Assembly (NCBI GenBank): GCA_044892505.1
Contig: CM097882.1
Location: 473,928,001 to 473,992,000, forward strand
Source: Schmidtea nova
Taxonomy: Eukaryota
Length of the DNA: 64,000 bases
Direction: 5' to 3'
This document shows positions 18,318 to 63,738 of this stretch, piece by piece (the first letter of the stretch is position 1; the number at the start of each line of letters is the position of its first letter). The notes under the pieces are model-generated. The model ran no database searches, was not told where the DNA came from, and saw only the letters and a program-made list of their open reading frames with translations. The translations under genes were made by a program, and so were the position numbers.

Positions 18318-19366
18318 TGTTCGGTTCGTATCAGTGGTTTACGACGAACACAGAAATATATATATATATATGTTTTGATTTGATTTGATTTGATTATCGG
18401 ACTCCAAACGATAATCCGCTTATATAATTATAAATAAAATATATGTTTTAGGTTGGGTGTAAAGAAAAGAAAACCAATTCTTTTTAATAAGATTTATGGC
18501 GATTTATGTATAACAATGTACAATATAATAAAATAAAATAGCTGCAAAGCAAAAGTTAGAAAATCGGTTATTCAAACCGTCCTCAGAGTTTAAGAACGAA
18601 AGCTGGACCTAAAAGGCTCAACAGCTCCGACTAAATGAAAGGACAAAAGATGAGGGCTTTCCCGGTAGTTTAATCGCGATAGTGACAACCCAGAAATGGT
18701 TGTCACTGTGACCTAATAATTTCCCTTCTAATAATTTATTATTTAACGAATTTACTGAAGGGGAAAAATAGTAATATAACTATTTCCCCGTGATCGATTT
18801 ATAGAATTAAAGCAAACTAGAAAATTTACCAGCTAATAAAGATTATTCCAATTTCGGGAAATTATCACAAATGAAATTCAAGCTAAACTTCTCGTAATAC
18901 TTCTGCCGTAAAAATTAATTTCTCCAATTCACAAATCTGTAAAACTTAGATTCTAAAATTCACTTCTGTAAAATTTATGTTCTGCCTCGACTGATTTGAC
19001 AATCAGTTTATATACAAATTATTTTCTCTCATGTAGGTCTAGACGACCACCTATTACTAACTACGTGTAGGTCGAAATTGACCTTACAAAATATTAACTT
19101 TTAAAGTAATTTATTATTACTATATATATCTTATTATTACTATTTAAATTTCTCATGTATTTATTTATTACTATATTTATTATATACTATTTAATTATTA
19201 CTATATTTATTATATGCTATTTAATTATTACTATATTTAATCTATATTTATTTATAGTAATTATTTATTTATTTTTAGTATTTTTTAATTGCTATTTCTA
19301 TTTATTTATTTACTTATAATATTTAATTACAAAAAACCCGAGATCCCTTGATCTCGAACCCTAACA
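18318..19366 (-). repeat. 3' LTR (1,049 bp)
   Basis: Matches 32195-33243 except at 18850/32727 and 19021/32898; minus-strand ends TGTTAGGG...CGAACA. Confidence 0.98.
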
Positions 19367-19368
19367 TG

Positions 19369-19378
19369 TCTTCCCCCT
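19369..19378 (-). promoter_or_regulatory. polypurine tract
   Basis: AGGGGGAAGA on the minus strand, 2 nt before the 3' LTR. Confidence 0.85.
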
Positions 19379-19680
19379 AACAAGATTTTCGTCCCGAAAA
19401 TTAAAGCGGAAAAAGACAAGAAGATGACGCAGCCAAAAATAAAAATAAAATAAAATAACAACACATGCATAAATATACATTGAATGCACTTGGTCAATAA
19501 AATAAAACAAAAATGAGTCTCATAAAACACACAATACATAAGTAATGTTAATCACAATCGATATCAAATAATAACTGTCTGTAAGCGTTAGATTGTTGAT
19601 CGCATAGCCGAAATGCTAATTGTTTGATTGATAGTTGTCATAGCTTATAGCTAGACCTTGGATTGAACGTAGCAGAAATG

Positions 19681-21837
19681 CTAGTTATCCTTTGCGAATA
19701 GGTTTTGAGCTGCTCTCTTGCGAATATGCGCTTGCTCGTTCTTGATGCGATCTTCCACTATATCTGGTCTATAACTGACCACCAATGTTTCGCGTGTTTC
19801 GACTTCCTTATATACCAAAGACGAAATCACGTATGATTTTCCGTTGGCCTCCAATACGCCATAGTAAGGGAAGTTTGAAACTGATGATTGGTGTACCGGT
19901 TTCCCGTCGTATTCTTTTATCCGAGGTACCCAATTTCTCTCTGGTCGCTGCCAAAAACTAGGGTCTTCATTGTCCAAATCCTGGGGTGTCTTTGCTGAAT
20001 TTCCCGTTCCAACGAAATCCCCTTCTCTTATAATAATAGGTTCGCCCTTAACCTCAGGAATCTGTTCCATATCGGGTGGAACGAATGCTGTTTCGATTAA
20101 ATCTTTGTCTTCCGTCGAGAGGAGATTTGGTACTTTCTTCTTGATCTTTAGATCTTGTAACCTTACAACAGGTTCTTGACTTTTCTTTGGGGGTGACTTT
20201 TCTACTGAAATCAATTTTTTAAAAGTCTTAGTAACTTTTTCCAAGAGCTTGTTCTCTTTCTTTGGTGGATTTTCTGGCACGATCTTTGTAATTGTACGGC
20301 TGTCTCCGTGTAAAGTTAAACGCATCTCTGTTTGCTCCTCACCCTCGCTTTCGCAGGTGGCGTAATCGTCTTCATCAGCTAAGGATATAGCTGGAGGGGA
20401 TAGTGATTCTTCCTCAACTATCTTTTGCAATTTGGTTGATAATGGTTGTTCCTGGGGTAAGCTCTCAATAGCTTTCCTTTTACTCGTTTCTTGTGGCTGT
20501 ATTGTATGAACCATTTTGACTTCTGATGTAATCGTCCCACTACGATTACCTGGGGTGATGTCATCTACCCAAACTTCTCTCAGTTTAAGGTAAATATTAC
20601 GTGTCGTTTCCACGTCATTTTCCGTTTTCAGATCTGAACGGTTTAGTTCTTCCTTTTCGAGAATTGACTTTGATAAATGCGCGAGTCGATAATGTCCGTT
20701 ACATTTCTTTAGTTCTCTCGCTTCCAGGCATTTTGCTGCTCCTAGTTCCCTAATGCCCAAAACTCGTTGAGGGTGTAACTGGACTGCTTCCAAGAAATCG
20801 TTGACTTGGAGACCTATTAGGATTTTCCCATCACATAATTTTCTAATACGGTCTGCGCAATCCTCTCCGTCAAATTGTCCGATGATTTCTTTTTCGGTCA
20901 TAGCATGCGGGTGCGATTGGTAATGTTTGACCTGGTTTCTGGGTGTAACCACCGTGTTTAGTATTAAATCACCACAGTAGTTTGCTATCAAAACAGCCAC
21001 CAAGGCTGGCTTTAAATAATCTCGCAAAGTTGCGTAATGCGCTGCAATAAATATTGACAATCTATCTTCTTGATTGGGGTGCAAATTCATCCGAACAAAG
21101 GATTTGAATGACTTGAGATCGTTCTCATTCACATTATAGGTCCAGGCAGGTTCATTTTTCCACAATGATTGCACTGCCTTGCTGGGTTCCAAAATCTCTA
21201 ATACCACAATAGTATTATATCCGTCACATTGGATGGAGATATTCTTTTCTCTGCCATCTCCGTTACTAATTTCTAGAGTTGATTCTGGTTGAAGTAGGAT
21301 AGGTCCTGTGGCTCCTGCCATGAAGATGGTAAAGGGTTTATTGATCGCGTGAATTAGGAGATGGTGAGTAAATGTTGATCTGTTAAATTCCGCCATGTGT
21401 TCAGTCAACCGGGTGTTCTCACGGCTGGTAATTGTGACTATGCACATTTGTCTCTTAGGCGATCCAAGAAACTTAAAATTGTTCGGGATGCCGGTGCAGT
21501 GCCCGTAATACCAATAGCGACGACCTTTCCGTGCTTCTGCGGATATCGCTTTTTCGATGTTTCGATAAATCAGTTTTTCCTTCTGTACTGTTTGCACATC
21601 GATAGTGCTATAACGCTGCTTGTATTGTGACACTTGATGCTTCATATCTGAAAGAAAAATAATTAACGTTAATATCAGATATACTGATATGCCAATATTG
21701 GCTAAAAAGAAATGCATAAATCTCGATTTACGGGATCTACTTATGCTGTAAGTTAATGCTACTCGGAGCTCAACAAGATTATAGATTTTAATATATATAT
21801 ATAAATACAAATATGCGATTTTATCTGTAATTGTCAT
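19681..21837 (-). CDS. ORF3 accessory protein (718 aa from ATG 21837, or 654 aa from ATG 21645): degenerate AlkB-like(?) region, degenerate DEDDh ISG20/REX4-like exonuclease, acidic/Lys-rich tail
   Basis: Intact long ORF inside the LTRs. PALVAVLIANYCGDLILNTVVTP...KLCDGKILIG...RLAHLSKSIL...TENDVETTRNIY aligns with REX4/ISG20 motifs. Confidence 0.75.
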   Translation of the reverse strand: MTITDKIAYLYLYIYIKIYNLVELRVALTYSISRSRKSRFMHFFLANIGISVYLILTLIIFLSDMKHQVSQYKQRYSTIDVQTVQKEKLIYRNIEKAISAEARKGRRYWYYGHCTGIPNNFKFLGSPKRQMCIVTITSRENTRLTEHMAEFNRSTFTHHLLIHAINKPFTIFMAGATGPILLQPESTLEISNGDGREKNISIQCDGYNTIVVLEILEPSKAVQSLWKNEPAWTYNVNENDLKSFKSFVRMNLHPNQEDRLSIFIAAHYATLRDYLKPALVAVLIANYCGDLILNTVVTPRNQVKHYQSHPHAMTEKEIIGQFDGEDCADRIRKLCDGKILIGLQVNDFLEAVQLHPQRVLGIRELGAAKCLEARELKKCNGHYRLAHLSKSILEKEELNRSDLKTENDVETTRNIYLKLREVWVDDITPGNRSGTITSEVKMVHTIQPQETSKRKAIESLPQEQPLSTKLQKIVEEESLSPPAISLADEDDYATCESEGEEQTEMRLTLHGDSRTITKIVPENPPKKENKLLEKVTKTFKKLISVEKSPPKKSQEPVVRLQDLKIKKKVPNLLSTEDKDLIETAFVPPDMEQIPEVKGEPIIIREGDFVGTGNSAKTPQDLDNEDPSFWQRPERNWVPRIKEYDGKPVHQSSVSNFPYYGVLEANGKSYVISSLVYKEVETRETLVVSYRPDIVEDRIKNEQAHIRKRAAQNLFAKDN

Positions 21838-22787
21838 AATCTCGTCATCATAATCCCATCAACCGACTCAATAGCCTGACTGAAGAATAATTTCATCCAA
21901 ACTCCCATTGCTATCAATGTAGTGATCATAGCTAATACTGCTGACGTAATAATCCATACCCCAACGGGTAATTTTCCCAAGTGAGTAATGGGGTTTACTT
22001 CATTAATTCCACACTGACAACTTTTAATATTGCTTTCTGTTGCTACTGTTGGTTTTACCATCTTCAATCCTTTCAATCTCTGCCATATGGCAGGATGAAT
22101 GACGTAACTCTCTTTCCGTATTAAGGATGTAACCGATTTCGTTGTCGTCGATGATTGAGGTAATTTCAAAGAGATTACTTCATAAAATACCTCATTCCAT
22201 TCATCGACTCCGAGCTTTTGTTTATTATTCATATAAGTGATATGAGCTTCCCACTCCACTGAACTGTTCCACTTGAGATTTTGTTTCTCAATATCTTCAT
22301 TTAGCCACAATTCTTGTACTATTTCCTTGTCGGAATGGATTTCTATCTTTACTCTATCCACTCCTTGTTTTGGTTGGCTGAAGGTAATCATACCTTGTTG
22401 GATATTTATCCTAACTTTCCTTTTGAAATCTGCTGTCTTCAGCTTCCATTGTGACTTTGAAAAATCTGACCATCGTCCAAACATAAAATGTTGTACAAGT
22501 ATATCTAATAAATATTCCTTTTCTGCTCGTAAGTCCTTTATGACTTTCACTCTTGTGTTTGAATCCAATGTAAAATGGAAACAACGTCGTTCACAAAACG
22601 AGAACTTGAATTTTGTATCATTTTCAGCTAATGATATTATCCTAAATTCCTGGAAAGATCTTCTGAATGCGAGATCTTGAATTTGTACCGCCGTTGGAAC
22701 AAATGTCTTTACACAGGATATAAGGCAACTTATTATTACCAAAAACGTAACTGATTTTGGCACGCCTCTTGATCGTAATGGATATCT
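21834..22787 (-). other. post-integrase type I membrane-protein module of unknown family
   Basis: RYPLRSR, then hydrophobic SVTFLVIISCLISCVKT (22704-22754), sequons NDT and NSS, and TM VGVWIITSAVLAMITTLIAMGVWMKLFF (21882-21965). Confidence 0.7.
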
Positions 22788-25700
22788 GTCTGAGACTGGT
22801 TCTGACCCTTTATCCTCTTTTTCCTTAATCGGATCTTTCTCCGTGACCGCAACTTTCTTGCATCTGTTAGCATGTACCATTATTGGTTCAGCTTTTCTAT
22901 TTGCTACTAATTGCAAGATTAAATTCGTGTCTGTGGTTCTCAAAACCTCATACGGTCCTTTGAAGTTTCTCATTAATTTTGGTGATAAGCCCTTTTTATT
23001 ATAATGGCTTTCCAACATCACCTTGTCTCCAACTAACATGCCATGTCCTTTGGCTTTCTTATCATGATAATCTTTCGATGCTTCCTGACTGAATTTTATA
23101 CTAAGACCTGCTTTTGTCCATGCTTCTTGCATTCTTTCTCTCATTTCCATGAGGTAATTTTCTTGGTCTAGATACTGTGTTGCTTTTGGGAAGAACAACA
23201 AATCTATAGGCATTTTACTTTGCCTTAAATACATGAGATAGAACGGCGTTTGTCCCGTACCCTCATGAACAGCATTTCTATATGCGAATAGGCATGATGG
23301 AATATGTATATCCCAATCCGTTTGCCCTGAATTTACGTATGATGCTAGCATATTTGCAAGCGTTCCGTTAAATCTCTCTACCAATCCGTCTGTTTGTGGA
23401 TGATACGGAGAGGTATTCAATTTTAAAATGTCGAAATAATCATTTATTCCTTTTAACAGATTACTCATGAAATCTGCTCCTCTATCTGTTAGTAGTTTTG
23501 TAGGTACTCCATACCTAAAAACGATTTGTTCTACAAAAATCCTGGCTATCGTATCTGCCTTGTGATTCGGTATCGGATAAGCCTCCGGCCATTTTGTCAG
23601 ATAATCGCAAAATACTAATATGTATTTGTTACCACTATTTGATTCTTTGAATGGCCCTAAAACATCCATTGCCGTCATTTCCATCGGTGTGGATGGTACT
23701 GGCATTGGTTTCATTGGCACATGCGGTTTCTTCCCCGTATTTCTCCTGGTGATACAGATCTTACATGACTGACACCATTCCTGTACGTCTGGTTTGATTG
23801 TCGGCCAGAAATATTTCTGCTTCAACCTTGACAATGTTTTCCTGAAAGACAAATGCCCTCCCAGTGCTCCATCATGATATTGTAACATCAAGGCTTCCCG
23901 ATATTTCTTAGGGACCATTATGACATTATCCCTTACATCCACATATTTGACTAATCCTTCTTCTAGGATAAATTTGTCTCGATTTTTCTCCCAATATTTA
24001 TTAAATTCCGTCGGTATGAACTTTGCTTCTAAAGCCTGTCTGATTTGGTTTATCTCTTCATCCGATTGTTGTGCTGCCATTAAATCCGCGAGTCTGTTTG
24101 CTTCTCTTGTAAGTGCGAAGATTGTTCCTTCTAATCTTCCTTCTTTGACATCTTCTGCTTCATCACCCTGGTCCATTCGAGAAAATGCATCTGCATTCCC
24201 ATTTTGATGTCCTTTTCGGTAATGTATTTCGATGTCGTACGGCTGCAAGATCAATGCCCATCTAACCAATTTTGATGTATCCATAGTATGCTTTGTTAAC
24301 CACTGTAATGGTCTATGATCCGTATACACAATGATCTTTCGACCCCATAAATATGTCCTGAATTGGTGTATAGCATACACAATTGCTAATGCTTCTAATT
24401 CGATAACTGCGTAATTCTTTTCGTGTGGTTTTAATCCTCTGCTAGCATACGCTATGGCATATTCGTCTCCTAGGTCATCTCTTTGACCTAACACAGCACC
24501 AATACCCCGAGTGCTGGCATCTGTCATGACCAAAAATTGTTTCTCAAAATCTGGAAACCGTAATATAGGAGGTTCCACGAGCATTCTCTTTAGCATAGCA
24601 AATGCTTCCTGTTGCTCTTTTCCCCAAACAAATTTGACATTTTTGCCCTCTAATTGTGTCAGAGGAAATGCTATTGCCGAAAAGTTCCTGATGAACTTCC
24701 TGTAATATCCCACTAAGCCCAAAAACCCTTTTATATGTTTGACTGTCTTTGGCTCTGGAAAATTCTTTGCTTTCTCAACATTTGCTGGATCTGGCTTTAC
24801 TCCATCCTTCGAGATAATGTGACCGACATAGACTACCTCTGATTCGGCCCATTTACATTTCGATGGTTTTACCTTAAGATTTGCATTAATTAACCTTTTG
24901 AATACGTCCTCTAAATGTTCTAAATGTTTTTCCAAATCTGGAGAAAATACTATGATATCATCTATGTATACCATTGCATGATGAACATCCATTAACATTA
25001 GATTCATGGCTCTTTGAAACGTTGCCGGCGCTCCTGTGAGACCAAATGGCATTACTGTATATTCGAAGTGTCCAAGGCTTGTAGAAAAAGCCGTAATTGG
25101 TATTGTCTCCTCTTTTAACTTGATTTGGTAAAATCCCTTCTGAGCATCCATCACTGAGAAATATTTTGAATTTCTCATGCGTCCGTAAATGTAATCCAAT
25201 AATGGTAATGGGTGACTATCCTTGCAAGTTGCTTCGTTTACCATTCGATAGTCGTTGCATAGTCGTACTGTTCCATCCTTTTTTGCCACTACTATCATTG
25301 GTGACTGGTATGGTGATTTACTATGCCTGATGATGTTATGTTTTAACATCAGTTTTACCTGCTTATCGACAGGTTCTTCCAAGCTAAACGGAATTCGATA
25401 CGGTCTCAGCTTTATTGGTTTAATATTGTTAAGAACAATTTCATGTTCCAACAAGTTCGTCTTTCCCAGATCATATTCGTGCTTGGCGAATACTTGATCA
25501 TATTTTCTTAACAACATGTTTACTTGAATATTCTCTCTTCGTGAAAGAGCTTTACTATTTGCCGTTGGCGCATCATAGTACTCGATGTCTGGTTCTCTAT
25601 TCTCTGCCTTCACTGTCAGGACAGATCCCCCAATCGGTAATTGATCCGACTTTGATACTCTCCCTACTCTTGTATCTGGGTACAATTTTAATGGTTTTAT

Positions 25701-25811
25701 ATCTAAATTGGCTACCCGAATTGGTATTCTGCCATTTTCAACTTTACCAACGCTATGCGTAATTGGTAGATTATATTTTGCTGAGAACCTTTCATCTGGT
25801 TCAAATACAAC
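21834..25811 (-). CDS. pol: Pol: RT - RNase H - integrase (HHCC, DDE, GPY/F) - signal peptide - ectodomain - TM; in frame with ORF1 after a TAA
   Basis: RT: DAQKGFYQI, PFGL, YIDD (24957-24968). RH: TDAS, ELEALA, TDHRPL. IN: HDGALGGH..CQSCKIC, MDVLGP, TDRGADF, VERFNGTL, FKGPY. The ORF track start at 25685 is a TTG within a frame that is open from 25811. Confidence 0.97.
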   Translation of the reverse strand, partial: VVFEPDERFSAKYNLPITHSVGKVENGRIPIRVANLDIKPLKLYPDTRVGRVSKSDQLPIGGSVLTVKAENREPDIEYYDAPTANSKALSRRENIQVNMLLRKYDQVFAKHEYDLGKTNLLEHEIVLNNIKPIKLRPYRIPFSLEEPVDKQVKLMLKHNIIRHSKSPYQSPMIVVAKKDGTVRLCNDYRMVNEATCKDSHPLPLLDYIYGRMRNSKYFSVMDAQKGFYQIKLKEETIPITAFSTSLGHFEYTVMPFGLTGAPATFQRAMNLMLMDVHHAMVYIDDIIVFSPDLEKHLEHLEDVFKRLINANLKVKPSKCKWAESEVVYVGHIISKDGVKPDPANVEKAKNFPEPKTVKHIKGFLGLVGYYRKFIRNFSAIAFPLTQLEGKNVKFVWGKEQQEAFAMLKRMLVEPPILRFPDFEKQFLVMTDASTRGIGAVLGQRDDLGDEYAIAYASRGLKPHEKNYAVIELEALAIVYAIHQFRTYLWGRKIIVYTDHRPLQWLTKHTMDTSKLVRWALILQPYDIEIHYRKGHQNGNADAFSRMDQGDEAEDVKEGRLEGTIFALTREANRLADLMAAQQSDEEINQIRQALEAKFIPTEFNKYWEKNRDKFILEEGLVKYVDVRDNVIMVPKKYREALMLQYHDGALGGHLSFRKTLSRLKQKYFWPTIKPDVQEWCQSCKICITRRNTGKKPHVPMKPMPVPSTPMEMTAMDVLGPFKESNSGNKYILVFCDYLTKWPEAYPIPNHKADTIARIFVEQIVFRYGVPTKLLTDRGADFMSNLLKGINDYFDILKLNTSPYHPQTDGLVERFNGTLANMLASYVNSGQTDWDIHIPSCLFAYRNAVHEGTGQTPFYLMYLRQSKMPIDLLFFPKATQYLDQENYLMEMRERMQEAWTKAGLSIKFSQEASKDYHDKKAKGHGMLVGDKVMLESHYNKKGLSPKLMRNFKGPYEVLRTTDTNLILQLVANRKAEPIMVHANRCKKVAVTEKDPIKEKEDKGSEPVSDRYPLRSRGVPKSVTFLVIISCLISCVKTFVPTAVQIQDLAFRRSFQEFRIISLAENDTKFKFSFCERRCFHFTLDSNTRVKVIKDLRAEKEYLLDILVQHFMFGRWSDFSKSQWKLKTADFKRKVRINIQQGMITFSQPKQGVDRVKIEIHSDKEIVQELWLNEDIEKQNLKWNSSVEWEAHITYMNNKQKLGVDEWNEVFYEVISLKLPQSSTTTKSVTSLIRKESYVIHPAIWQRLKGLKMVKPTVATESNIKSCQCGINEVNPITHLGKLPVGVWIITSAVLAMITTLIAMGVWMKLFFSQAIESVDGIMMTRL

Positions 25812-28800
25812 TTATCCTTCCCACTGTTTGCTAGTGGACACGAAACATACTGTTTCTGCTCTAGGTGGTATTATCATCGTATGGTCGATGAAAACTGTAT
25901 CATCATTATAAACTTTTCTTTTCTTACCGGTTGATCTAACTAACAATCCGGTAGCACAGTCAAATACGACTCCTTTTAATCTTCTTAAAAAATCCATTCC
26001 TAGTAGACATTCTACTGGACAAGTTCTCATGACTATAATATCATGACGAAATTCTTGGTCACATAGCTTGATGTTACAAGCTAGAGTACCGATAATATTC
26101 AATGATGTGCCTGTAGCACCTGTTAGCGAAACTCTAGAGGTTTCCATTGATTCCAATTCTTTTTGATTTAATAGCGTTGCCTCTATGATAGTGCCGTCTG
26201 CTCCTGAATCTATCACTGCATTAACTGTGTGTCTGTTTATTTTTATCTTTATCATGGGTTTCTTCTCCAAGTTCACCCCATTTGCCATCAAAATAGTAGC
26301 ATGCGTTATCCCGATGGTATTTGCTCTGAATTTCTCAGCCTCATCTTGTTCGGTATCACTCAATTTTGGATTATATTCCTTGAATTTAGCTTTTATTGCT
26401 TCTAACGACTCGATAGGATACAGTTTCCCTTCATTTTCTAACGATAATGATATGCTTTTACCTGTTTCTCGAGCATCTTTGTCGGGAATTTGTTGATGTT
26501 TAGAAATGTACATTTTGTTTCTTGGTATGGTTAAAGCATAACTTGGCTTGCCTTCTCCTGATGTCTTTTGAAACTCTGGCGATTCCCCTTTTGGCGCTGT
26601 TGGTAAGCTTCTAAGATACGGCAATTGCATATATCTTGGGCTTCTTTTCAATCTAGGCGATGTTGTATTGATTGCAAATTTCTGGTCTGCACTATCGTAT
26701 TCATCTTCTGAAATCATACTTTTGTCGAAAATCTGTTTTGTCGCTTCGTAAGGTGGTTGATAATCCCGATATTTCATTTTCCTTAATTGATGATTCGGTT
26801 TTTTATTGTAGTTTCTTTTTCGACTTCTACTTTGCCTCTGAACTGTATTAAGAGAGTCTCCATTACCTCCTCCTTCAGAATTGTTATCGTCCCGATAACT
26901 TGTATTACCCTCCATTTCGATTCCAATAATCTCGTGTTTTACCAAGCTTCTCTGTTTGATTGTCTTTATTTCTTTACGATGATGTTTAAACAATGCAAAT
27001 TCCGCACACATAGGACACAATCCTAGTATCAACTTCCAAGACCATCCACCGATTTTGAATATACTGTATGTGGAAATTAATTGTGTTATTATTAACTTTA
27101 GAATTACGAATATTGCATATATTCCTGAGCAGCCTGCCACGAAAATACCAAAATTGGTAAACCTTCCCCATATTTTCATCATCACATTTTTAGCTGCTTC
27201 TTTATAATGATCTGGACCAAATAATAAATTGTAATCTGGTCTCATTTCGCTTGCTTGGTAAATTGTTCTTATGATTTCAGTGATACCTCTTTCTCTTACT
27301 TGAGGAAATAGCAACGTCTGTCTTGCCTCCTCAATGTCTGCTGGAGTGTAAATTCCTCCTTGTGATAATTCATCGAGTGATTTAAATTCCATGTTTTCCT
27401 CGAGTTTCGTGACTTCCAATGTTTCCACCTTTCTATTAGATGGTTTTCTGTCCGGTAATGAGATCCATCTATCATTTACCTTGTATAACGGTGATATTGC
27501 TGGATTGCAAATTGAAGGTTGAGGCTTTTGTTTTTCATCCAAAAGTCTCCTCGTTACTGGCATTACAAATCGTATCTTGTTTTGATATGACACTGGTAAT
27601 TCTAGAGTACATTCGTTATACCGTGTTAATTGTACCTCTATGGGTTGACATTGATAGCTGTATATAGCTTCCCCCATAATTCTGCCAAACATTCCATCTT
27701 CTAGCAACATAGGTGTCACTAGATCCGGATTCACGATTGATATCGCTAATCGATTTCGAACTATTTCGCGATTTAGTTTGCAATCATTGAGTATTACTTC
27801 CTGATACATTTCCTGCATTTGTCCTTGCAGATCATGATATAAATAATCTATTTTATTATTTATATAGTTCGTGATTTTGATATCCTGGCTGTGAATATTC
27901 TTGGCTTTTTGGATAAATGTTTTTGACAAATATAATCCTTTATAGTTGGTCTCGTACACCACTTTTCCGCATTTTGTCTTCTTATCTTTTCTGACAAATC
28001 TGATTGCATCTTTCTTATCTTCTGATACTAATACTAGAGGTGTGATTTCCTCACTAATATCCTCTTTTTGCTGTTTGTTGATCCTTTTCAACGTCTTTTC
28101 TTTATCCCAAATTCTTTCTCTTTTGGGTAAATCTCGATACTTTGTCCCGTTCAACTTATGGAAATTAATTTTCTTTAGTAATGACAATTCGCAATGGTCT
28201 AGTATTTGATCGTATAATAATGTAATGACCCCTGTTCTGCAGCTTCCAAATTTCGCGAGGCACTGAGGGTGTGCCATTAATCTTCCTGATAATACATCGA
28301 ACGTCCCTTCGTATTCTCTTAATTCGATTGAATAGTCCTCGATATCTACGACAAAACTTACCAACTCCGATCCGCGAGTTTTCTTTCTTCCCGTACAGGT
28401 ACCATCTGATCCAATTGATCCTCCTCTTGTAATGGTTACTCCCAGTGTTTTCCCTACTTCCGCGGCGATGGTTACCTCGTTATCGATTCTTAAAGTACCT
28501 TTTCGAAAGGCATCTAGACAATCTTCTGGCAATATGTTAACTGGTCTAGGTATTAGAGTGGCTGATAGAAAAGCTGTATAGCTGTGTGAACCACAATAAT
28601 ATTCAAACGTTGCTCTTTGGACTCTACATTCTCTTATCTTAGTTCTGAAGAATTCACTTTCTTGGTAAACATAGTATTCGACCTTTTCTCCTGTTTGGAC
28701 TTTCTCTGGGTATGCCTCTTTGCACTCAATTGCATCCACGAGCGAATATATCCGAGCCAACTTTGGATCACTGCAATCAAACGCTGTCATTGTGTTTGTC

Positions 28801-31800
28801 TGTTTCATTATCCCCATCATTACTAAAAACATTAATATCATATTTGTCATATTCCCCATTCCTCCATTTCCGAGGTGGTTGTTATTCATAGCCTCTTCCA
28901 CAAATTCATATCGTGGTTTATGTTTCTCCTCTTCCCAGAAGTTATTTTCACTCATCCACGTTCCGAGATAATGCTCCGTTATCTCCGTGATCTGGTCTAT
29001 TTCTCGATTAATAAGTTTCTTCTCATTGCCTGCGCGGGCTAAGGCATCTTGAATCAACATAGATAATGCTGTCACTATTTTTCCTTTAGATAACCCATCT
29101 TGTATGAGTGTCTCTAACATACTCTGTATCTCGTTTTGAGGTACCCCTTTAGGTAATCTCCTCATCGTCTTCGCGATTGACTGTGTCACTTTATCCACTT
29201 GAATTCCTTTAATCCGAGTGATCTGCCATTCCGGCTTTAATATTCCTATGATCTGTTTGATTCTCTTCCATGTCAGAGATTTTTCTGGTATATGTACACC
29301 CTCGTCTCTCATATCAACATCCCTGGCTATTCCTGACAGGGTTTTCATCTGAACCTGTTTAATGGTTTCTTGGTTTAATTGCTCCGTGGGTGGAGGTTTC
29401 ATTTGATCTTTCCTAGGCCTTCCTCGCCTATCTTTCTTTGTCTGCCATGCTGGCCTGACAGTTTCTACCGCCTGAGAAGTTGAAGCACCCACGTTAGTTT
29501 CCTCATTATTGCGCCTGATTTCCTCTTCTCCGTGATTATCGGCATCGATATCTACATTAAGTGGTTGTGTCTCAACGTTACCAATGACCATTTCATCTGG
29601 TAATCGTAATGCTGACCATTGAGATTCAGGTGGCTCTACGGGAATGATTGCTACCGTTGTAGTTTCAAATGGTAGACATCCCACATCTACTAAATATTCA
29701 TCATCATCCACTTGCCCTCCATGAATCATAATCAAGAATATACCAGTAGTCTGCCCAGTATCTATTAAATCCTTTCTCAACGTTATCACTTTGCTAAAAC
29801 AACGATATAACCTCGTCATGGGTTCTTTTCCCGATATTCGAATGTCTAAAGTTATCATGCCTTGTCGGTGTGCTTGATGACGTATTGCTGTTCCATTTTT
29901 TCTCATTAACATTTTTATTTCTGTTTGAAAAGAACTAGTTTCTTTTACTACAGGTAGTAATATAGGAATTATACTCTCCAATGATTCTACTGGTATGCGC
30001 AATACCAACATCCAGTCTAATATTTCCTTGATTGTTTCTCCATCCCTCGGAGATTTCTGCAACTCTATCTTCAGACGTTGCTCTATTTGTTGAACTTCCT
30101 CCAACTGTGCGATTTCCATCTGTGTGAGTAGAAACACACTGTCTTGATCCACTACTGGGACCGATATTCCTGTCAGTTTCGTTGTGAGTTTCGTTACCTT
30201 TCCTGGTAATACACCATTTTGTAGTAGTGTTTCTCCAACTACTAACTTTTCTCCATATAAGTAAAAATCATATCTATTATGTTTCAATTTCATCATTGTA
30301 TCTGACAACTTGTCTGTTCGACATCTTACATTCATGTCGATGTTAAACTCCTGCTCCTGAGGAAGTTTTATGTTTAAATGCGAATCCTGAAGATCCCATT
30401 CATGTTCCATTGCTGTTCCTATCTTTCGTAGGATTTTGTGTATGTCGTTATGATACCTTGGATCATCTTCGACCTGAGATATTAACTGTAATATCTTTCC
30501 AATTTCACTATTCTTGATCTCACCTTGTGATAATTTCTCTAATTCTCTAGTCAGTCTCTGCTGATACTCATATCTGGAATCCACCAGTTTTAAACATTTT
30601 GCTAGGGTATCTGACCCTTTCTTGGCCTTTGTTTCCTTGAACAAAGCCTGGTCGAACTCGCTCAGTATGGTACTCATACTGGGTTCGTCATCATTATCAG
30701 AATTTGTTTCTGATTCTATTACCTCCTGATTCTCGCTGCTGGAATCCATGGGTTCACTATTACCTTGCTCATCTGTGTAAGCATCATGATTTTTCTCAGC
30801 TGAAATCATCAAAACTGTTCCTTGCCCAACTGTGTGAGCATCATCGCTTTCCTCAATGGGATTCATTATAACTGTTCCTCGCCCATCCATGTGAGCATGA
30901 TTTTTCTCAGCTGAAATCATAAAAACTGTCTCTTGCCCAACTGTGTGAGTCTCATTTATTTCTTCAATTGTATTCATCAAAACTGTTCCTCGCTCATCTG
31001 TGTGAGCATGATTTTTCTCAGCTGAAATCATAAAAACTGTATCATCTCGATCCATTAGCCGTGCTAATCGATTTTTCTCCTCCTGGATTTCCATTTCCAG
31101 TTGTTGCAAATACGTCAATTCTTTATCGTGATTGACCATGAACGTAGTTTTTGGCTTGCTGATATTACCACCATTGGTAGTCCTATTATTCGTATTATTA
31201 CTCTGATTTTGAGGACACGACCTCAGTATATGCCCGAATTTTCCACATCCGTGACATTTTATCTTTCCTGATGAATTAACATCATCCCTTTTAATATTAA
31301 AATTCCCATTCGTGGGGAGATTCTTAACTCTACAAACGGAAGCCACATGCCCTCTGCGTTTGCATTTATCACACTGCAAGTTCGTGACTCTACAGTTCTC
31401 AACACTATGATTATTCATACCACATTTGGTACACTGAATACCCCTACGAGTATCAGCTACCTTCTTACTGTGGCAATCTTTTGATATGTGCCCTTTCTTA
31501 TGGCAGTTAAAACATTCAATGGCTGGCTTCTCATTATTTACCATAAATGATGTAGCCTTTTCTAAGCTGCTTTCGATTACGACAGCTTTTCTTGTTAATT
31601 CCCAAAAATCATCTCCCGTGTGGAGAATCAATGCATTTCTCATTACATTTGTGAATCCAGCTAATAATTGGTCTTTAACCATAGCTTTAGTTGCATCATT
31701 CCAGGTAGTTCTGAGCCCAAATGCTCTTTCTGCTAATAACAATAATTGATAGGAAAATTCTCCTACATGCTCATTGGCATTCTGTTTTCTATGGTAAAAC

Positions 31801-32102
31801 TGTTGTCGGAAAATTCTACTTGAATCTCCCGGTAATATTCTAGCTGTTAGTGATTCTCTCATCTTTTCCCATGTAGCTGGTTTATCTGCTGCTGGTAACG
31901 CCATAATATCATTGTAGTTTTCCCTTGCCATACCCTTAAGGTAAATTGGCAGTCTTTGTATCATTATTGCATCTGGATACCCATAGGCCTTTGCCATCTG
32001 ATAATACTCTGACATAAACTCCGGAAATTCCCCTGGATCTCCGCTAAATGCCTTGACAGGTAAAGCGGGATATCTAGCAAAAACATTATTCTCTTCAGCC
32101 AT
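25812..32102 (-). CDS. gag: Gag-Env-Pro polyprotein (2,096 aa from ATG 32102)
   Basis: Uninterrupted frame: capsid (FSGDPGEF..YLKGMA..TWEKMRESL..RKQNANEHVGEF), 4 CCHC knuckles, accessory region, glycoprotein, and protease DSG...LLGMDFL. Confidence 0.95.
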   Translation of the reverse strand: MAEENNVFARYPALPVKAFSGDPGEFPEFMSEYYQMAKAYGYPDAIMIQRLPIYLKGMARENYNDIMALPAADKPATWEKMRESLTARILPGDSSRIFRQQFYHRKQNANEHVGEFSYQLLLLAERAFGLRTTWNDATKAMVKDQLLAGFTNVMRNALILHTGDDFWELTRKAVVIESSLEKATSFMVNNEKPAIECFNCHKKGHISKDCHSKKVADTRRGIQCTKCGMNNHSVENCRVTNLQCDKCKRRGHVASVCRVKNLPTNGNFNIKRDDVNSSGKIKCHGCGKFGHILRSCPQNQSNNTNNRTTNGGNISKPKTTFMVNHDKELTYLQQLEMEIQEEKNRLARLMDRDDTVFMISAEKNHAHTDERGTVLMNTIEEINETHTVGQETVFMISAEKNHAHMDGRGTVIMNPIEESDDAHTVGQGTVLMISAEKNHDAYTDEQGNSEPMDSSSENQEVIESETNSDNDDEPSMSTILSEFDQALFKETKAKKGSDTLAKCLKLVDSRYEYQQRLTRELEKLSQGEIKNSEIGKILQLISQVEDDPRYHNDIHKILRKIGTAMEHEWDLQDSHLNIKLPQEQEFNIDMNVRCRTDKLSDTMMKLKHNRYDFYLYGEKLVVGETLLQNGVLPGKVTKLTTKLTGISVPVVDQDSVFLLTQMEIAQLEEVQQIEQRLKIELQKSPRDGETIKEILDWMLVLRIPVESLESIIPILLPVVKETSSFQTEIKMLMRKNGTAIRHQAHRQGMITLDIRISGKEPMTRLYRCFSKVITLRKDLIDTGQTTGIFLIMIHGGQVDDDEYLVDVGCLPFETTTVAIIPVEPPESQWSALRLPDEMVIGNVETQPLNVDIDADNHGEEEIRRNNEETNVGASTSQAVETVRPAWQTKKDRRGRPRKDQMKPPPTEQLNQETIKQVQMKTLSGIARDVDMRDEGVHIPEKSLTWKRIKQIIGILKPEWQITRIKGIQVDKVTQSIAKTMRRLPKGVPQNEIQSMLETLIQDGLSKGKIVTALSMLIQDALARAGNEKKLINREIDQITEITEHYLGTWMSENNFWEEEKHKPRYEFVEEAMNNNHLGNGGMGNMTNMILMFLVMMGIMKQTNTMTAFDCSDPKLARIYSLVDAIECKEAYPEKVQTGEKVEYYVYQESEFFRTKIRECRVQRATFEYYCGSHSYTAFLSATLIPRPVNILPEDCLDAFRKGTLRIDNEVTIAAEVGKTLGVTITRGGSIGSDGTCTGRKKTRGSELVSFVVDIEDYSIELREYEGTFDVLSGRLMAHPQCLAKFGSCRTGVITLLYDQILDHCELSLLKKINFHKLNGTKYRDLPKRERIWDKEKTLKRINKQQKEDISEEITPLVLVSEDKKDAIRFVRKDKKTKCGKVVYETNYKGLYLSKTFIQKAKNIHSQDIKITNYINNKIDYLYHDLQGQMQEMYQEVILNDCKLNREIVRNRLAISIVNPDLVTPMLLEDGMFGRIMGEAIYSYQCQPIEVQLTRYNECTLELPVSYQNKIRFVMPVTRRLLDEKQKPQPSICNPAISPLYKVNDRWISLPDRKPSNRKVETLEVTKLEENMEFKSLDELSQGGIYTPADIEEARQTLLFPQVRERGITEIIRTIYQASEMRPDYNLLFGPDHYKEAAKNVMMKIWGRFTNFGIFVAGCSGIYAIFVILKLIITQLISTYSIFKIGGWSWKLILGLCPMCAEFALFKHHRKEIKTIKQRSLVKHEIIGIEMEGNTSYRDDNNSEGGGNGDSLNTVQRQSRSRKRNYNKKPNHQLRKMKYRDYQPPYEATKQIFDKSMISEDEYDSADQKFAINTTSPRLKRSPRYMQLPYLRSLPTAPKGESPEFQKTSGEGKPSYALTIPRNKMYISKHQQIPDKDARETGKSISLSLENEGKLYPIESLEAIKAKFKEYNPKLSDTEQDEAEKFRANTIGITHATILMANGVNLEKKPMIKIKINRHTVNAVIDSGADGTIIEATLLNQKELESMETSRVSLTGATGTSLNIIGTLACNIKLCDQEFRHDIIVMRTCPVECLLGMDFLRRLKGVVFDCATGLLVRSTGKKRKVYNDDTVFIDHTMIIPPRAETVCFVSTSKQWEG
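25956..26260 (-). other. retropepsin aspartic protease domain
   Basis: AVIDSGADGTII (catalytic D at 26208-26210), flap TGATGTSL, CLLGMDFL. Confidence 0.95.
26988..28850 (-). other. env: envelope glycoprotein domain, chuvirus/Jingchuvirales G-like (class III-like fusogen), embedded in ORF1
   Basis: Signal-like MILMFLVMMGIM, then AFDC, YYCGSHS, GSIGSDGTCTG, CKLNREI, GEAIYSYQCQP, CTLELPV, GGIYTPADIE, LLFP; TM FGIFVAGCSGIYAIFVILKLII (27087-27153). Confidence 0.85.
29640..30563 (-). other. duplicated helical + ubiquitin-like module
   Basis: QRL..EL.K...(D/E)I..(I/L).RK.GTA occurs twice, each followed by a 72-73 aa segment matching the ubiquitin-fold pattern. Confidence 0.6.
30762..31040 (-). repeat. 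in-frame 111-bp (37-aa) tandem repeat x2.5 built from 18/19-aa subunits
   Basis: TVFMISAEKNHAH...TV(L/I)MN(T/P)IEE...HTVGQ repeated. Confidence 0.9.
31215..31514 (-). other. four CX2CX4HX4C zinc knuckles (nucleocapsid)
   Basis: CFNCHKKGHISKDC, CTKCGMNNHSVENC, CDKCKRRGHVASVC, CHGCGKFGHILRSC. Confidence 0.95.
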
Positions 32103-32173
32103 GTCCTCCACAACTTTTAACTTTTTAGGAGCTATTTTGTATATATGACAATATGCCCACTGATAATAATTGT

Positions 32174-32191
32174 ATCACGTCGGGCTCACCA
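32174..32191 (-). promoter_or_regulatory. primer-binding site, tRNA-Trp type
   Basis: TGGTGAGCCCGACGTGAT, 3 nt after the 5' LTR. Its complement ATCACGTCGGGCTCACCA differs at one base from the animal tRNA-Trp 3' end as I recall it (ATCACGTCGGGGTCACCA). Confidence 0.85.
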
Positions 32192-32194
32192 AAA

Positions 32195-33243
32195 TGTTCG
32201 GTTCGTATCAGTGGTTTACGACGAACACAGAAATATATATATATATATGTTTTGATTTGATTTGATTTGATTATCGGACTCCAAACGATAATCCGCTTAT
32301 ATAATTATAAATAAAATATATGTTTTAGGTTGGGTGTAAAGAAAAGAAAACCAATTCTTTTTAATAAGATTTATGGCGATTTATGTATAACAATGTACAA
32401 TATAATAAAATAAAATAGCTGCAAAGCAAAAGTTAGAAAATCGGTTATTCAAACCGTCCTCAGAGTTTAAGAACGAAAGCTGGACCTAAAAGGCTCAACA
32501 GCTCCGACTAAATGAAAGGACAAAAGATGAGGGCTTTCCCGGTAGTTTAATCGCGATAGTGACAACCCAGAAATGGTTGTCACTGTGACCTAATAATTTC
32601 CCTTCTAATAATTTATTATTTAACGAATTTACTGAAGGGGAAAAATAGTAATATAACTATTTCCCCGTGATCGATTTATAGAATTAAAGCAAACTAGAAA
32701 ATTTACCAGCTAATAAAGATTATTCCTATTTCGGGAAATTATCACAAATGAAATTCAAGCTAAACTTCTCGTAATACTTCTGCCGTAAAAATTAATTTCT
32801 CCAATTCACAAATCTGTAAAACTTAGATTCTAAAATTCACTTCTGTAAAATTTATGTTCTGCCTCGACTGATTTGACAATCAGTTTATATACAAATTCTT
32901 TTCTCTCATGTAGGTCTAGACGACCACCTATTACTAACTACGTGTAGGTCGAAATTGACCTTACAAAATATTAACTTTTAAAGTAATTTATTATTACTAT
33001 ATATATCTTATTATTACTATTTAAATTTCTCATGTATTTATTTATTACTATATTTATTATATACTATTTAATTATTACTATATTTATTATATGCTATTTA
33101 ATTATTACTATATTTAATCTATATTTATTTATAGTAATTATTTATTTATTTTTAGTATTTTTTAATTGCTATTTCTATTTATTTATTTACTTATAATATT
33201 TAATTACAAAAAACCCGAGATCCCTTGATCTCGAACCCTAACA
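32195..33243 (-). repeat. 5' LTR (1,049 bp)
   Basis: Direct repeat of 18318-19366, adjacent to the PBS. Confidence 0.98.
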
Positions 33244-41720: not shown

Positions 41721-42017
41721 ACGTCTTGTGAAGAGACTTTCGTCGATTTCTGTTACCAATTAAAACTCTCAAATCATTGCGTGAGGGTGTATATGTCGTT
41801 CAATTTAAGTTAAATGCTTAATCAGTTAACAGTTTACTGCAAGTGCTGACTGTTTTGAGCGTCGCTTAAATAAGTGTAATATCCACCAGTCAATTCTTAT
41901 TTGCATTAGATTAACTCATACACCTGTTTATTTGTTTTATATCGAGCATTTTTTTACTTTTTTTAGTGAAAAATATACGATTTTAGTTCATCTTATATTT
42001 AAATAATTAGTCAGATA

Positions 42018-43290
42018 CGTGGTGCGGTCAAAGAGTTTCCGGCCTACCCCAGAAAAAAGTAAAAGCAAGAAACCACAACTATATTTTTATAAACACCAAT
42101 ACCATTACTTCTCGAACCAATTACCTCCGGCATCGACACACATCTGCCAACGACCAGGGAGGGCTTCGAATGCCCCATGGTAAAATGAGTGTGGTAGCTG
42201 GTCAAAAATCCGATTTACAGCCTCCTCTAAATCGCCTGCATCCATGAAATACTGTCCCCTCAGTTGCTTCTTCAATTCCGTAAATAGGCAGTAATCTGAG
42301 GGAGCCAAATCAGGGCTGTATGGAAAGTGGCTAATGATCTCGAAGCCACAGTCATTGAGTTTTGCTTGGGCAATGCGGCTGGTGTGAACTAGCGCATTGT
42401 CATGTTAAAACCAGTGAGGGAGGCCATATGGTTTTCGCCACTTTCTACGAGCTTGCTCAACGAGATTACCGCAATATTGTCCGCTGATTGTCCGTCCCTT
42501 CTCAAGAAAGTCGGTGAGGATCACTCCCTTATGACTCCAAAACACAGTCAACATAAGTTCCCGTCTGTGCGACATTCCGGAACGAGACTTCCAAACTTTT
42601 CCTTCTTCCGGCTTTCTCCATTCCATAGACTCCCGCTTTGATTCAGGCTGATGTAGGGGCAACTGTGTCTCATCAACAGTGAGGATGTTTTGGATAAATC
42701 TTTCTCCATACTTGCGGTAAATGGCGAGGTTCATGAGACACGCATTCTTTCGGTTATTGTACATCTCAGTTGTCAAAAAGCGAGACACAAAGCGAGACAC
42801 CACCTTGTTAAAGTTAAGGTCTTTCAATAATTGCACTACGTACCGTGTGATATTTGTAGGGATTCTTCCAGCTGCCTGGGAGTTATACGGCGATCTTCCA
42901 GTACCATTTTCTCCAATTTTTCCTTCACATCTTCATTTCTCGAAGTCGTTGGTCGACCCTCTCGTTCCTCATCTGACACACTTTGTGGACCCCGTTTGAA
43001 TTCAGCAATCCAAAACTTGATGGTAGACTGAGAGGGACACTTTTCGCCATAGGCTCGATTCAGATTTGCCATGATTTCAACACAAAAGCGAATAGCACTG
43101 CGATACTCAATTTTTTCCAGCGAATGCACTTGCAACGACATTTCCATCTGCAACAGATAAAGTAAATGGATTAGGTCAATAAGATTTTCAACATGAAATT
43201 GTCAATAAATTTCCAATAAAATAAACCTATTTCCATTAAAAAATCAATTTGTTAAGTAGGGTAGGCCGGAAACCTTTTGACCGCACCACG
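42018..43290 (-). mobile_element. full-length (1,273 bp) defective mariner (DD34D)
   Basis: 32-bp TIRs CGTGGTGCGGTCAAA(GA/AG)GTTTCCGGCCTACCC (30/32) with TA on both sides. Transposase from ATG 43147 to stop 42105 with TVDET, HDNAR and YSPDLAPSDY; at least two frameshifts (about 42836 and 42405). Confidence 0.95.
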
Positions 43291-43794
43291 TATGTGATTA
43301 AATTAAACATTGTATATTTTTAAATTTTAAATTTATTTTCACAAAACTTGAGGTTGTATGAGGTACACTGCAAGCAGTTAACTATCGTTCAACTGAAATG
43401 AAAGAGTAAAATAGTGGCTAGTCCATCAAAGAAATACAAATTTTAGAGTCTAAAGTGATATCTAAATTTTTTTTTATTTATTACAATTCATAAATAATGC
43501 ATAATTAGTTATCAGCATTTGTCCAGCATTGGTATGTCTGACTGTTATAAACCAGGATGTTTTATTTTTAACTTAGATTGAGAAGTGTAGACTCAATAGA
43601 GAGCGTAAAGCAATATTGCAGAAAAAGCAAGCAATATTTTCAATTTTAAAGAGACCAATTCGCAAATAAAATCATTTTTTTAATTATTAAAATTACAATT
43701 AAATTTATTTAAAATAATCCATATTAAACGTATTTTGATAACGATCCATAACTTGATACACCAACTGTCTGTAATTAAGGGCAACAAATACATA

Positions 43795-56030: not shown

Positions 56031-56624
56031 TCACACAACAAATTCACTAAGTGATGTTGATAAATTTCTTTTTTCATCTTTACCCAAATTTGGAAACCTA
56101 TTTATAATATATTTATTCTTAACATCTGATGCAAGCCAGAATTTAATACCAAATTTATCGGGTTTATTTGGCATATATTGCGTAAATCTACATCTAGCTT
56201 TAGTGGGAAATAGTTGTTCATCAATTGTAATATTCGCATTTGGTTTATAGCAATTTTGGCGATTTTCAATAAACATATCCCACACTGTTGATATCATAGC
56301 AAATTTATCCGTTTGTAAGTGTTTATGTCCAGTTTTTTATCAAATCGAATGAATCTTAAAATATCCGTAAACTATTTTCTAGCCATGGTTGATGAAAAAA
56401 AGGTTGATACAAATTTCTTATTCCATAAATATGAAAGGTTCAAATATTTTGCTTCCTATGCCTCTCGTGCACACAGTATTTGCAATGAAAGCCTTGATTT
56501 TTGTTTTCGCGAGGCTCCATTCCCCCACTCCTTGGTAAGACTCTAACTCTGTGCAAGTTATTATATGCTTTATAATACGATCGTCAATTATCAATGAAAA
56601 TGCACTACTAACTCTAACTTTCAT
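56031..56624 (-). pseudogene. piggyBac transposase remnant (PGBD4-like)
   Basis: ITIDEQLFPTKARCRFTQYMPNKPDKFGIKFW; TDKFAMISTVWD. Confidence 0.85.
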
Positions 56625-57059
56625 AATATTTCTTTTTGCAAAACCTGTTACAACTGTTGAGTTTGATTTTGTACATTAACATTAAGTGCTGCTCGATGTT
56701 GATAATTCATTTGGTGAACATTCAATTATGCATTGACAAAGGTATTATTCACCATAATAGATGGTGCTCGCTGATGTCTTGCTTGGACTGACGCCCCTGG
56801 AATCGTTCCACCGGAATTATTGGTAGCAGAGATCCGTTGTGTAGGCTCGTTGTTGGTAGTATCAATGGGCAATTGTTGATTAGGATATGATTGATATTGT
56901 CAAAACACAATCTCATGGAAATCAGGAAACTGATGCTGATGCTGAGAAATTTGATTCGGTTGAATATGGTATGTAATAAAATTGTTGGGCTGCTTATTAA
57001 CTATTGATTGAGGGGCATAGATTTTTTATGTGACTGAATCATCGGATTAAGAAGAATAA

Positions 57060-59830
57060 AGACACTCACAGAATATTTACCACATGTCAGAACTAGTGAT
57101 ATTCCTATAAAACTGATATGCCTATAAAACTGTGTGATATTCCAACTTTTGAACGTAAATATCCTGGTTTGGTAATCAATGTGTTAACTTATAATGATAA
57201 TCAGTTATCAGATATGAATAATGTTGTAATGAAACAACCACATTTGAATATAATTCATCGATCAAAAGTCATAGACGGCAAGCAGATTTACTTATTAATG
57301 TTAGAAAATACAGATCAATTTCATTATACTGCAGTAATCAACATCGATCGTTTGATGAATTGTCATAAAAGCACAAACTGTAGTGTTCAGATTTGTTGCA
57401 AGTAGTGTATAAATGGCTTGAATGGATACAGAAAGAAAAAAAGTTTTTCAAAAGCATCAAGCACTGTGCAAGAAAAATCAATCGGAATCAACTTTATATA
57501 CTATGTCAACAGATAAAAACTTGGAATTAAAAAACTGGTCAAAGATTATAACACCCTAATTTGTTATTTATGTAGATTTTGAGTAGATTTTATTCAAAGA
57601 TGACACTTATTTTTAAAGAAATTTACCAATTCCAGCCGGACTCTTATTAATCAACAATTTTAATTGAATATCAATTTATTATCAATTTTTAGGTGATGAT
57701 TTTGTTTATTAATTTTTTAAGAAAGTAAAAATTATAGCAACAAAAATTGCTTGTCCATATTACATCAAAAAAGGTAGAAATTGAATGTCACCACTTTCTC
57801 TAGATGAAAAGCAATAATTTGAAAATTCAAAAATTTGCTACTTGTGCAAGAAACAGATAATAGAAAAGGTCAGAGATCACGATCATTTAACAAGAAAATT
57901 ATTCGGGTTCCATATGTAATAAATGTAATATGTCAAGAAAAATCAATGAAATTTTGTCCGTTGCGTTTAATAATTTGAGGGGTTATAATTTACACCATAT
58001 CCTTAAGCATAGGTTAAATCGTTTTCCGGATTGGAATTTAATCTGTATTCATCTTAAAACTGAAAAATTTCTATCATTTATTGCATACATTGGTGGAATT
58101 TCAATAAAATTTATTGACTCTTATCAGTTTGTCAATGAATCTTTAGCTAAAGCCATCAAAACATTGAACCACTTACCCATTACAAAATCAGAATTTAATG
58201 GAATTATAGTAGAATCAAAAGGAATATTTCAATATAACTTTGCCACTAGTCAAGAAGTTATGGAAACAACAACACAATTACCCCCAATCTGGGATAGTGT
58301 TTCAAAAAAAGAATATGAAAAGGCCCAACATATATAAGAAGAAACATACTGTGAAATATTGATGGATTATCAGTTAATTTATTTGAAACTTAACGTGTTT
58401 CTATTGGCTGATTTCTTCCAACAATTTTAAGCCAATTCCATAGCTCATAATCGATTGAAACAATTAAACTTTTATGGAATTCTTGGAATGTATTCGGCAT
58501 CATCACTTATGACTTTAGATGAAACAATTTAACTGATACAAGAAATGGAAATGTTTAACTTTTATGAAGGCGGAACCCGTGGTGGTCTTTCATTTGTGAA
58601 CAAGCATTATGTTAAATCAGATGCAAATACAAAGTTATTGTACATATATATTAATAACCTTTATGGATCCGCTTTAAGTAAAGCTTGCCGTGGAGACTTT
58701 AGTTGGATTTATTCAGATTTAGATAAAATCTAAGAAGAATGCAAGAATTTAGAATTAGAAACGCTTCCGAATGGCTATACAGTAGAAGTTTATTTAGAGA
58801 TCTTTTCAGAAATTCATGATTTATTGGATGATCTACATGTAGCATCTTAAAAGATGTGTGCTCTAGGATCTAAAGTAGAAAAGTTAATGCTGACACACTA
58901 TCCGAAGTAAAAAATTATGTAATTCATTGGCGGTTTCTTCAAATGTAATATCAATATACATAGAGCTGTTAAATTTAAACAGGCTGCTATTTTCAAGAAG
59001 TATATTGATACAAATACTAAGCTAAGAGCTGAGTCGAATAATAGTCTCGATAAAAATTATTATAAGCTTTTGAATTATAGTCTGTACGGAAAAACAGTCA
59101 AAAATTTGAAGAAAAGAATGAATTTGAGACAATATAATACTGACCAGAAAAAGGTAACATATGCTTCTAAGCCAACTTTTCAAAGAAGTATAAAGATTGA
59201 TGATGATTCAATAGTTGTCTTAGTAAATAAAGACTATATTTGTTTGTTTAGACCCAGCTATATAGGTCAATCGATTTTGGATTTATCGAAACTTCGGATG
59301 TATCATATACAATATCTGGAGTCAGCTAAATATCGAGCACAATTTGGTTGCGAAAAAAATATTATACTGGGGATACCTATAGTTTTTTTGCAATGTAAAA
59401 TGTAAAATTAGATACATTATTACTGGCAATGGTTAATGACAATCTCTTGGATACGTCTAATTATCCTTCAGAACATCCAATCTTTTCCAGGAAATTAGAT
59501 GTAGCTATCGGAAAATTCAAGGATGAAAGTAAAGGCGATGCATATAAAGAATAGATCTTTTTCAAACCAAAATGTTACAGTTGTTCAGTGGAAAAGAGAC
59601 CTTAAAAGCTAAAAGAAAAACATTGAAGGGTACTGACATCAAACATCAGTCGTATCTAGATTGTTATAATAACACAGAAGGTTTATAGCATCACAATGTC
59701 GAATTGGTACACAAAATAATAAATAATTAAGTTTCCAGCAGTCGCAAGTTGCTTTAACAAATAAAAAAATAAAATAAATTGGATTGAAAAGTATAAAAAT
59801 CACACATATGGACACTACGGCGATGAGAAA
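57060..59830 (+). pseudogene. fragmented protein-primed family B DNA polymerase (Polinton/Maverick-type) with endonuclease-VII-like motif
   Basis: FERKYPGLVINV, HYTAVI, KVRDHDHLT, FNNLRGYNLH, FIDSYQF, KGIFQY, EGGTRGGLS, YINNLYGSA, NYSLYGKT, PSYIGQSILDLSKLRMY, GKFKDESKG, HTYGHY; many stops and frameshifts. Confidence 0.85.
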
Positions 59831-62262: not shown

Positions 62263-62321
62263 TTTCAAATTTTAAATTTAAATTGCCAAAGGTCAAATAA
62301 GGTCAAACCTTCAAACAAGGG

Positions 62322-63645: not shown

Positions 63646-63738
63646 TCATGTGTGTGTATGTGTTCAAATTTTTTTTTTAACACAAATTTTTTTAACACAA
63701 ATATTTTTTTTTTTAACACAAATATGAGTCATCAAGAA

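Follow-up and report, generated by a model that had tools for sequence, protein, structure and literature searches.

Putative TSG101- and ALIX-type late-domain motifs in the predicted cytosolic tail of a chuvirus-type fusion glycoprotein carried by a Gag-Env-Pol Ty3/gypsy element

A Ty3/gypsy element in the window (the whole stretch of 64,000 nucleotides that was analysed) encodes a fusion glycoprotein whose predicted cytosolic tail carries a PTAP and a LYPIESL word, both of them representatives of motifs enriched in the tails of its relatives. We regard it as probable, on the sequence comparisons presented below, that these words are late domains for TSG101 and ALIX through which the fusogen tail recruits ESCRT for particle budding, and the element is likely to have inherited them with its chuvirus-type fusion glycoprotein. 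Because the same motifs recur in related chuvirus Env tails, it is likely the Env protein itself that recruits the budding machinery. Elements of this type are already published; the placement of late domains on a fusogen tail appears to be new, would reach chuvirus-type fusogens generally and has strong statistical support.

The element maps to 18318-33243 on the minus strand, is of the Gag-Env-Pol Ty3/gypsy type and shows a 4-bp target-site duplication (GCTA). Its parts and the two motifs are listed here in the order in which the element is read.

32195..33243, minus strand: 5' LTR of 1049 bp, TG...CA, then a PBS-like TGG stretch at 32174-32191
31215..32102, minus strand: Gag, first Met at aa 25, four CCHC zinc knuckles at aa 221-320
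28791..28865, minus strand: internal hydrophobic segment, predicted signal or signal-anchor before Env, aa ~1104-1128
27153..28787, minus strand: Env ectodomain, class III chuvirus-type fusogen by sequence (Pfam PF24664 Monjiviricetes_fusion, E 2.5e-90), 14 Cys
27075..27152, minus strand: predicted single transmembrane helix, aa ~1675-1700
26988..27074, minus strand: amphipathic segment following the anchor, aa ~1701-1729, conserved and weakly hydrophobic, predicted to be interfacial and not membrane-spanning
26295..26987, minus strand: Env tail, predicted to be cytosolic and of low order, aa ~1730-1960
26592..26603, minus strand: PTAP, TSG101-type late-domain motif by motif match, aa 1858-1861
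26394..26423, minus strand: LYPIESLEAI, ALIX-type LYPx3LxxI motif by motif match, aa 1918-1927
25971..26267, minus strand: aspartic protease, DSG at aa 1989, sharing its frame with Env and the tail
25812..25814, minus strand: single in-frame stop between protease and RT in this copy
21834..25811, minus strand: RT, RNase H, integrase and C-terminal extension, continuing the Env-PR frame after the one stop
19681..21858, minus strand: additional ORF of 725 aa ahead of the 3' LTR, its N terminus with a hydrophobic segment
18318..19366, minus strand: 3' LTR, differing from the 5' LTR at 2 positions and lying downstream of a polypurine tract

The insertion is young, as judged from LTRs that differ at 2 positions, and its primer-binding site presumably resembles the 3' end of tRNA-Trp. 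A matrix domain would not fit into Gag, which does not start with Met-Gly either; the region that we take, by likeness, to be capsid-like has no Pfam match, nor do the ~780 aa between NC and Env (28870-31200, minus strand). It is the position of the PF24664 domain between the zinc knuckles and the protease that places a class III glycoprotein at this point of the polyprotein. In alignment this Env resembles the Platyhelminthes C1a rows, and a search of solved structures returned no match under E 0.4. The Pol domain order is PR-RT-RNase H-IN (Pfam), as in GAG-ENV-POL errantiviruses. Not all ORFs are intact in this copy, given the one in-frame stop, which is probably private to it or an assembly error, since family contigs at full depth from four runs of one study (all 30 bins covered, summed depth high) differ from the window inside the stop codon. 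Among 40 variant sites listed of 311, none falls within either motif and several are adjacent to them (26485, 26545, 26589, 26607, 26622), a subset too small to bear on their conservation.

GAG-ENV-POL Ty3/gypsy errantiviruses with an HSV/gB-type Env have been reported from nematodes, bryozoans and flatworms (Chary and Hayashi, PMC13524379), in a paper that cites an earlier one on such elements in nematodes (Sacco et al. 2022). The present element has in common with them the Gag-Env-Pol order, a class III Env, LTRs and many copies. The nearest is Smed_errantivirus_4 of Schmidtea mediterranea, whose Env agrees with this one at 34 of the first 50 aligned positions, as counted by eye, and is not the same sequence; on this likeness a planarian is the likely host. 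In the main text of PMC13524379, the terms 'late domain', 'ESCRT', 'ALIX' and 'cytoplasmic' have no occurrence, and the analysis there is of ectodomains. Late domains have been described on Gag, matrix, some non-structural and other proteins (PMC8402826, PMC7923801); among the top-ranked open-licence literature there was no report of them in chuvirus or errantivirus glycoprotein tails.

Both motifs are in frame in the minus-strand ORF 25812-32174 and lie 60 aa apart, the core LYPIESL spanning aa 1918-1924 (nt 26403-26423). The original prediction had placed such a pair between the Env transmembrane segment and the protease, at about this distance, and is borne out on both points, the motifs being flanked by a hydrophobic anchor (aa 1672-1710) and the protease (Pfam RVP, aa 1970-2068). 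Each occurs once in this 2120-aa frame and is absent from the element's other two long frames; PPxY is absent from its Env tail. LYPIESLEAI also matches the longer pattern LYPxxx[LI]xx[LI], which we take to be that of ELM. The YP motif of this element stands in the exact context KLYP and has the n=3 spacing, with Glu at Y+3. When the 238-aa tail was shuffled 20,000 times, P[ST]AP arose in 0.6% and [LM]YPxxx[LI] in 0.8% of the shuffles, and the two together in none. Over ORF1+ORF2 both appeared together in 0.33% of 3,000 shuffles, and either motif alone in 3.6-10% of whole-polyprotein shuffles. A YPAL word in Gag (aa 35) was considered as a late domain and rejected, as it has no hydrophobic residue before the Tyr and a counterpart in only 1 other Gag-bearing region.

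Conservation was assessed on the best 150 relatives of Env from a full HMMER search; of these and the query, 133 fit the membrane-region profile and 124 reach its end, and 18 further rows (fragments, truncated or fused) were excluded before counting. The tails scored comprise 13 that run into a protease (Env-PR polyproteins) and 92 from stand-alone glycoproteins of 600-900 aa. [LIVM]YP is present in 9 of the 13 Env-PR tails (shuffle mean 0.7, maximum 4) and in 50 of the 92 stand-alone tails (mean 3.5, maximum 10), and P[ST]AP in 17 of the latter (mean 0.7, maximum 4) and in only 1 of the former (p about 0.05). As for conservation of the motifs against a divergent tail, which the original prediction had raised, the YP motif answers to it, and P[ST]AP is rare among polyprotein relatives. 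The strict [LIVM]YP is missing from 4/13 polyprotein and 42/92 stand-alone tails, and 35 of the 92 have neither motif. Where a stand-alone tail has both, P[ST]AP precedes YP in 9 cases out of 10, the same order as in this element.

Control words, made by reversing or altering the motifs, are not enriched in the stand-alone tails (PY 13/92 vs 17.6; PA[ST]P 0/92; [LIVM]FP 1/92), and PPxY is not enriched in the relatives' tails (1/13, 4/92). Per 1000 aa, [LIVM]YP occurs 5.9-8.0 times in tails and 0.5 times in ectodomains (a twelfth to a sixteenth), and P[ST]AP is absent from 55,307 aa of ectodomain. A k-mer scan of the 105 tails that assumed no motif returned YP as the top 2-mer, LYP (28 vs 1.6), IYP and SAP as the top 3-mers, and PSAP, KLYP and PTAP as the top 4-mers. 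Motif-bearing rows (59/104) are scattered across the whole tree (FastTree), although these occurrences are not independent origins, since the relatives share ancestry. Median identity is 28% in the ectodomain and 21% in the tail (16% when shuffled), such that the tails appear otherwise nearly unalignable. On these counts the enrichment of the motifs in the tails is not chance; what is conserved at the core is the YP motif, with PTAP as an accessory that comes and goes. Among the three held-out full-length glycoproteins, the only new ones from word-index protein searches (1, 4 and 7 matches), none has [LIVM]YP or P[ST]AP and one has YYP. A metagenome scan gave 56 pattern matches, of which none was confirmed.

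The Env tail is predicted to be cytosolic, with a single pass through the membrane, and not luminal, in keeping with the original prediction. This topology was derived from hydropathy scales and relies on one strong helix, a weak second segment and a basic flank. On an insertion scale, the helix scores 0.7-1.2 and the second segment (~1709-1729) ~5, both here and as the mean over 124 sequences. The column of aa 1693 holds K/R in 81% of 124 relatives, and aa 1729-1750 include 7 basic against 2 acidic residues. The tail, basic at its start, has no Cys, and order-promoting residues make up 21% of it vs 35% of the ectodomain. One membrane pass would put both the tail and Pol in the cytosol, and Pol must be cytosolic to be packaged.

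Chuviridae glycoproteins share the Pfam family and membrane-region pattern of this Env; they are stand-alone proteins with tails mostly of 40-90 aa, whereas the tail of this element is ~230 aa long and runs on into the protease. Twenty stand-alone or fragment rows were looked up, 10 of them picked for having motifs: 5 belong to named chuviruses or chu-like viruses, 2 group with proteins of insect genomes, and the other 13 are unnamed. All five named proteins (Tacheng tick virus 4, Yichun mivirus, Blattella germanica chuvirus 1, Soybean thrips chu-like virus 2 and Fushun oxya chinensis chuvirus 1) have [LIVM]YP close to the end of the tail, and P[ST]AP is present in two of them; three of the five were looked up for having motifs. 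For chuviruses, PMC7642597 gives the genome as NP-Gly-RdRp and names no matrix gene; 'cytoplasmic' and 'transmembrane' do not occur in its text. The Anakin elements of that paper are also LTR elements with a captured chuvirus-type glycoprotein, but belong to BEL/Pao and not to Ty3/gypsy.

With HIV-1 p6 (PTAP + YPXnL) the element shares the two motif classes and their order; EIAV p9 (YPDL) has n=1 like most relatives, whereas this element has n=3. The p6-like character that the original prediction saw in a motif pair placed before the protease proves to be positional only, because stand-alone chuvirus glycoproteins, which have neither Gag nor protease, carry the same motifs at the ends of their tails. 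In p6 and p9 the motifs follow NC at the C-terminal end of Gag, whereas here they lie on a transmembrane fusogen ~1500 aa past NC, in the protease frame. Among other systems with ESCRT links outside Gag or matrix, bluetongue NS3 interacts with ESCRT proteins (PMC4452911) but is not a fusogen; bornavirus P, not a fusogen either, has putative P[S/T]AP and YPXL motifs at the protein end (PMC5834213); and Oropouche Gn/Gc bind CHMP6 without identifiable late domains (PMC9888203).

The other half of the original prediction assigned the motifs to the glycoprotein tail and not to Gag; the tail placement held, whereas a displaced Gag p6 does not account for them. Regions upstream of Env are free of [LIVM]YP and P[ST]AP in 8 of the 9 polyproteins examined (the ninth, with a motif upstream of Env, has no zinc knuckle in that region), and this, together with the recurrence in stand-alone tails, argues that the motifs belong to the captured glycoprotein. 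We accordingly consider it very improbable that they are a p6-like remnant displaced by env insertion or, in this element, chance words or functionless inherited leftovers. The single-motif frequencies in shuffles quoted above leave some room for chance, but the motifs, KLYP included, are the family's most enriched words, and the few LTR mismatches of a young insertion speak against leftovers.

A further reading takes the Tyr motif as a YxxPhi adaptor (AP-2/AP-3) signal, or as another host-factor site, with PTAP incidental. YxxPhi is found in 60/92 stand-alone tails vs 29.8 shuffled, and at 45 of the 59 YP sites the Y+3 residue is hydrophobic (background 19%), the n=1 spacing of most relatives being compatible with YxxPhi as well. 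However, the enrichment is gone once Y+1 is not Pro (Y[^P]xPhi, 24/92 vs 27.1), YxP-Phi is not enriched (6/92 vs 3.6), P[ST]AP is enriched independently, and the motif of this element, with its Glu, does not fit; a plain YxxPhi signal was rejected for its failure to explain the Pro requirement and this Glu, and we judge the wider reading improbable. Of the remaining 14 sites, 6 have a hydrophobic residue at Y+5, and the Y+3 and Y+5 placements are the two spacings that ALIX ligands are known to use, as in EIAV (YPDL) and HIV p6 (YPXnL; PMC8402826). The n=3 form alone is found in 1/13 polyprotein tails besides this element. The motifs might also bind ALIX and TSG101 and yet act in directing Env to intraluminal vesicles, whether for turnover, for loading into exosomes or for budding into internal compartments, with no free extracellular infectious stage. 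There is precedent in the YPX3L of the PAR1 receptor, which is bound by ALIX and leads to MVB/lysosomal sorting (PMC3341166), and in the late-domain-dependent loading of E-cadherin into vesicles described in the literature, and the sequence evidence fits vesicle sorting and plasma-membrane budding alike. We nevertheless hold it to be unlikely, since exogenous chuviruses, for which PMC7642597 names no matrix gene, keep the same motifs, and the PTAP-then-YP layout matches viral budding modules (PMC8402826). Nor would use of ESCRT by itself prove the extracellular stage that the original prediction had in view, since membrane proteins also use ALIX motifs for MVB/lysosome sorting (PMC3341166).

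Under the budding interpretation that we favour, LYPx3L and PTAP in the predicted cytosolic Env tail would be the docking sites for ALIX and TSG101, respectively, whereupon ESCRT-III would be recruited and the bud neck cut. A single polyprotein would be threaded with Gag cytosolic before the internal signal segment, the ectodomain luminal, and the tail and PR-RT-IN cytosolic; the signal segment would hold Gag at the membrane and the Env anchor would hold Pol. As Gag is without a matrix domain, Env would supply both the membrane tethering and the scission signal. The tail would bring in ESCRT before the protease cuts, and a cut downstream of the YP motif, at a site near aa 1960, would leave the motifs on the Env side. 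More tentatively, we propose that chuvirus-type class III fusogens may be self-budding, their tail late domains replacing matrix; that LTR elements capturing them may have gained entry and exit in one step; and that in Gag-Env-Pol elements the polyprotein may anchor matrix-less Gag and Pol while Env drives the ESCRT-dependent release of infectious particles.

If true, a conserved late-domain pair on the fusogen tail would offer a mechanism for the cell exit of chuviruses, with no matrix gene named for them, and would mean that env capture brought budding besides entry. The pair is a direct handle on whether errantiviruses use ESCRT, a question called open in a 2012 review (PMC3383448). Should the host be a planarian, RNAi in it would allow a test on natural particles.

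Several further observations concern the element and its relatives. A possible protease-site-like word, a weak match, lies upstream of PTAP at ~26660-26685 on the minus strand (aa ~1832-1836); if it is cut, both motifs would be released on a ~125-aa peptide. Three repeats follow NC (30728-31006, minus strand), whose TV[FL]M words resemble other domain-junction words and may be protease sites. The Pol frame continues ~310 aa past integrase (21834-22770, minus strand) into a possible second membrane protein with hydrophobic segments that are signal-like (aa 1016-1046) and C-terminal (aa 1278-1315), and this extension has no match in Pfam or Atlas. For the extra 725-aa ORF, Atlas features suggest RNase T-like exonucleases at 0.85, as a lead only. 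Low-depth contigs of runs X1-X4 over 25000-32400 correspond to internally deleted copies, with joints such as 25396 to 26417 and 28154 to 31073. Relatives P0005, P0006, P0007, P0009, P0012 and P0014 have two to four tandem protease-like domains after Env, and the Gag-Env-Pol polyprotein P0008 (HBK71150.1), although its label assigns it to a Flavobacteriaceae MAG, probably stems from a binned animal contig.

Elsewhere in the window, 43-nt inverted repeats surround broken transposase-like frames at 42007-43301, which we take, by likeness, to be mariner-like. Broken frames at 56031-59405 presumably derive, again by likeness, from a piggyBac-type transposase and a B-family DNA polymerase, and tandem arrays with units of 120 bp and ~30 bp occupy 62259-63996.
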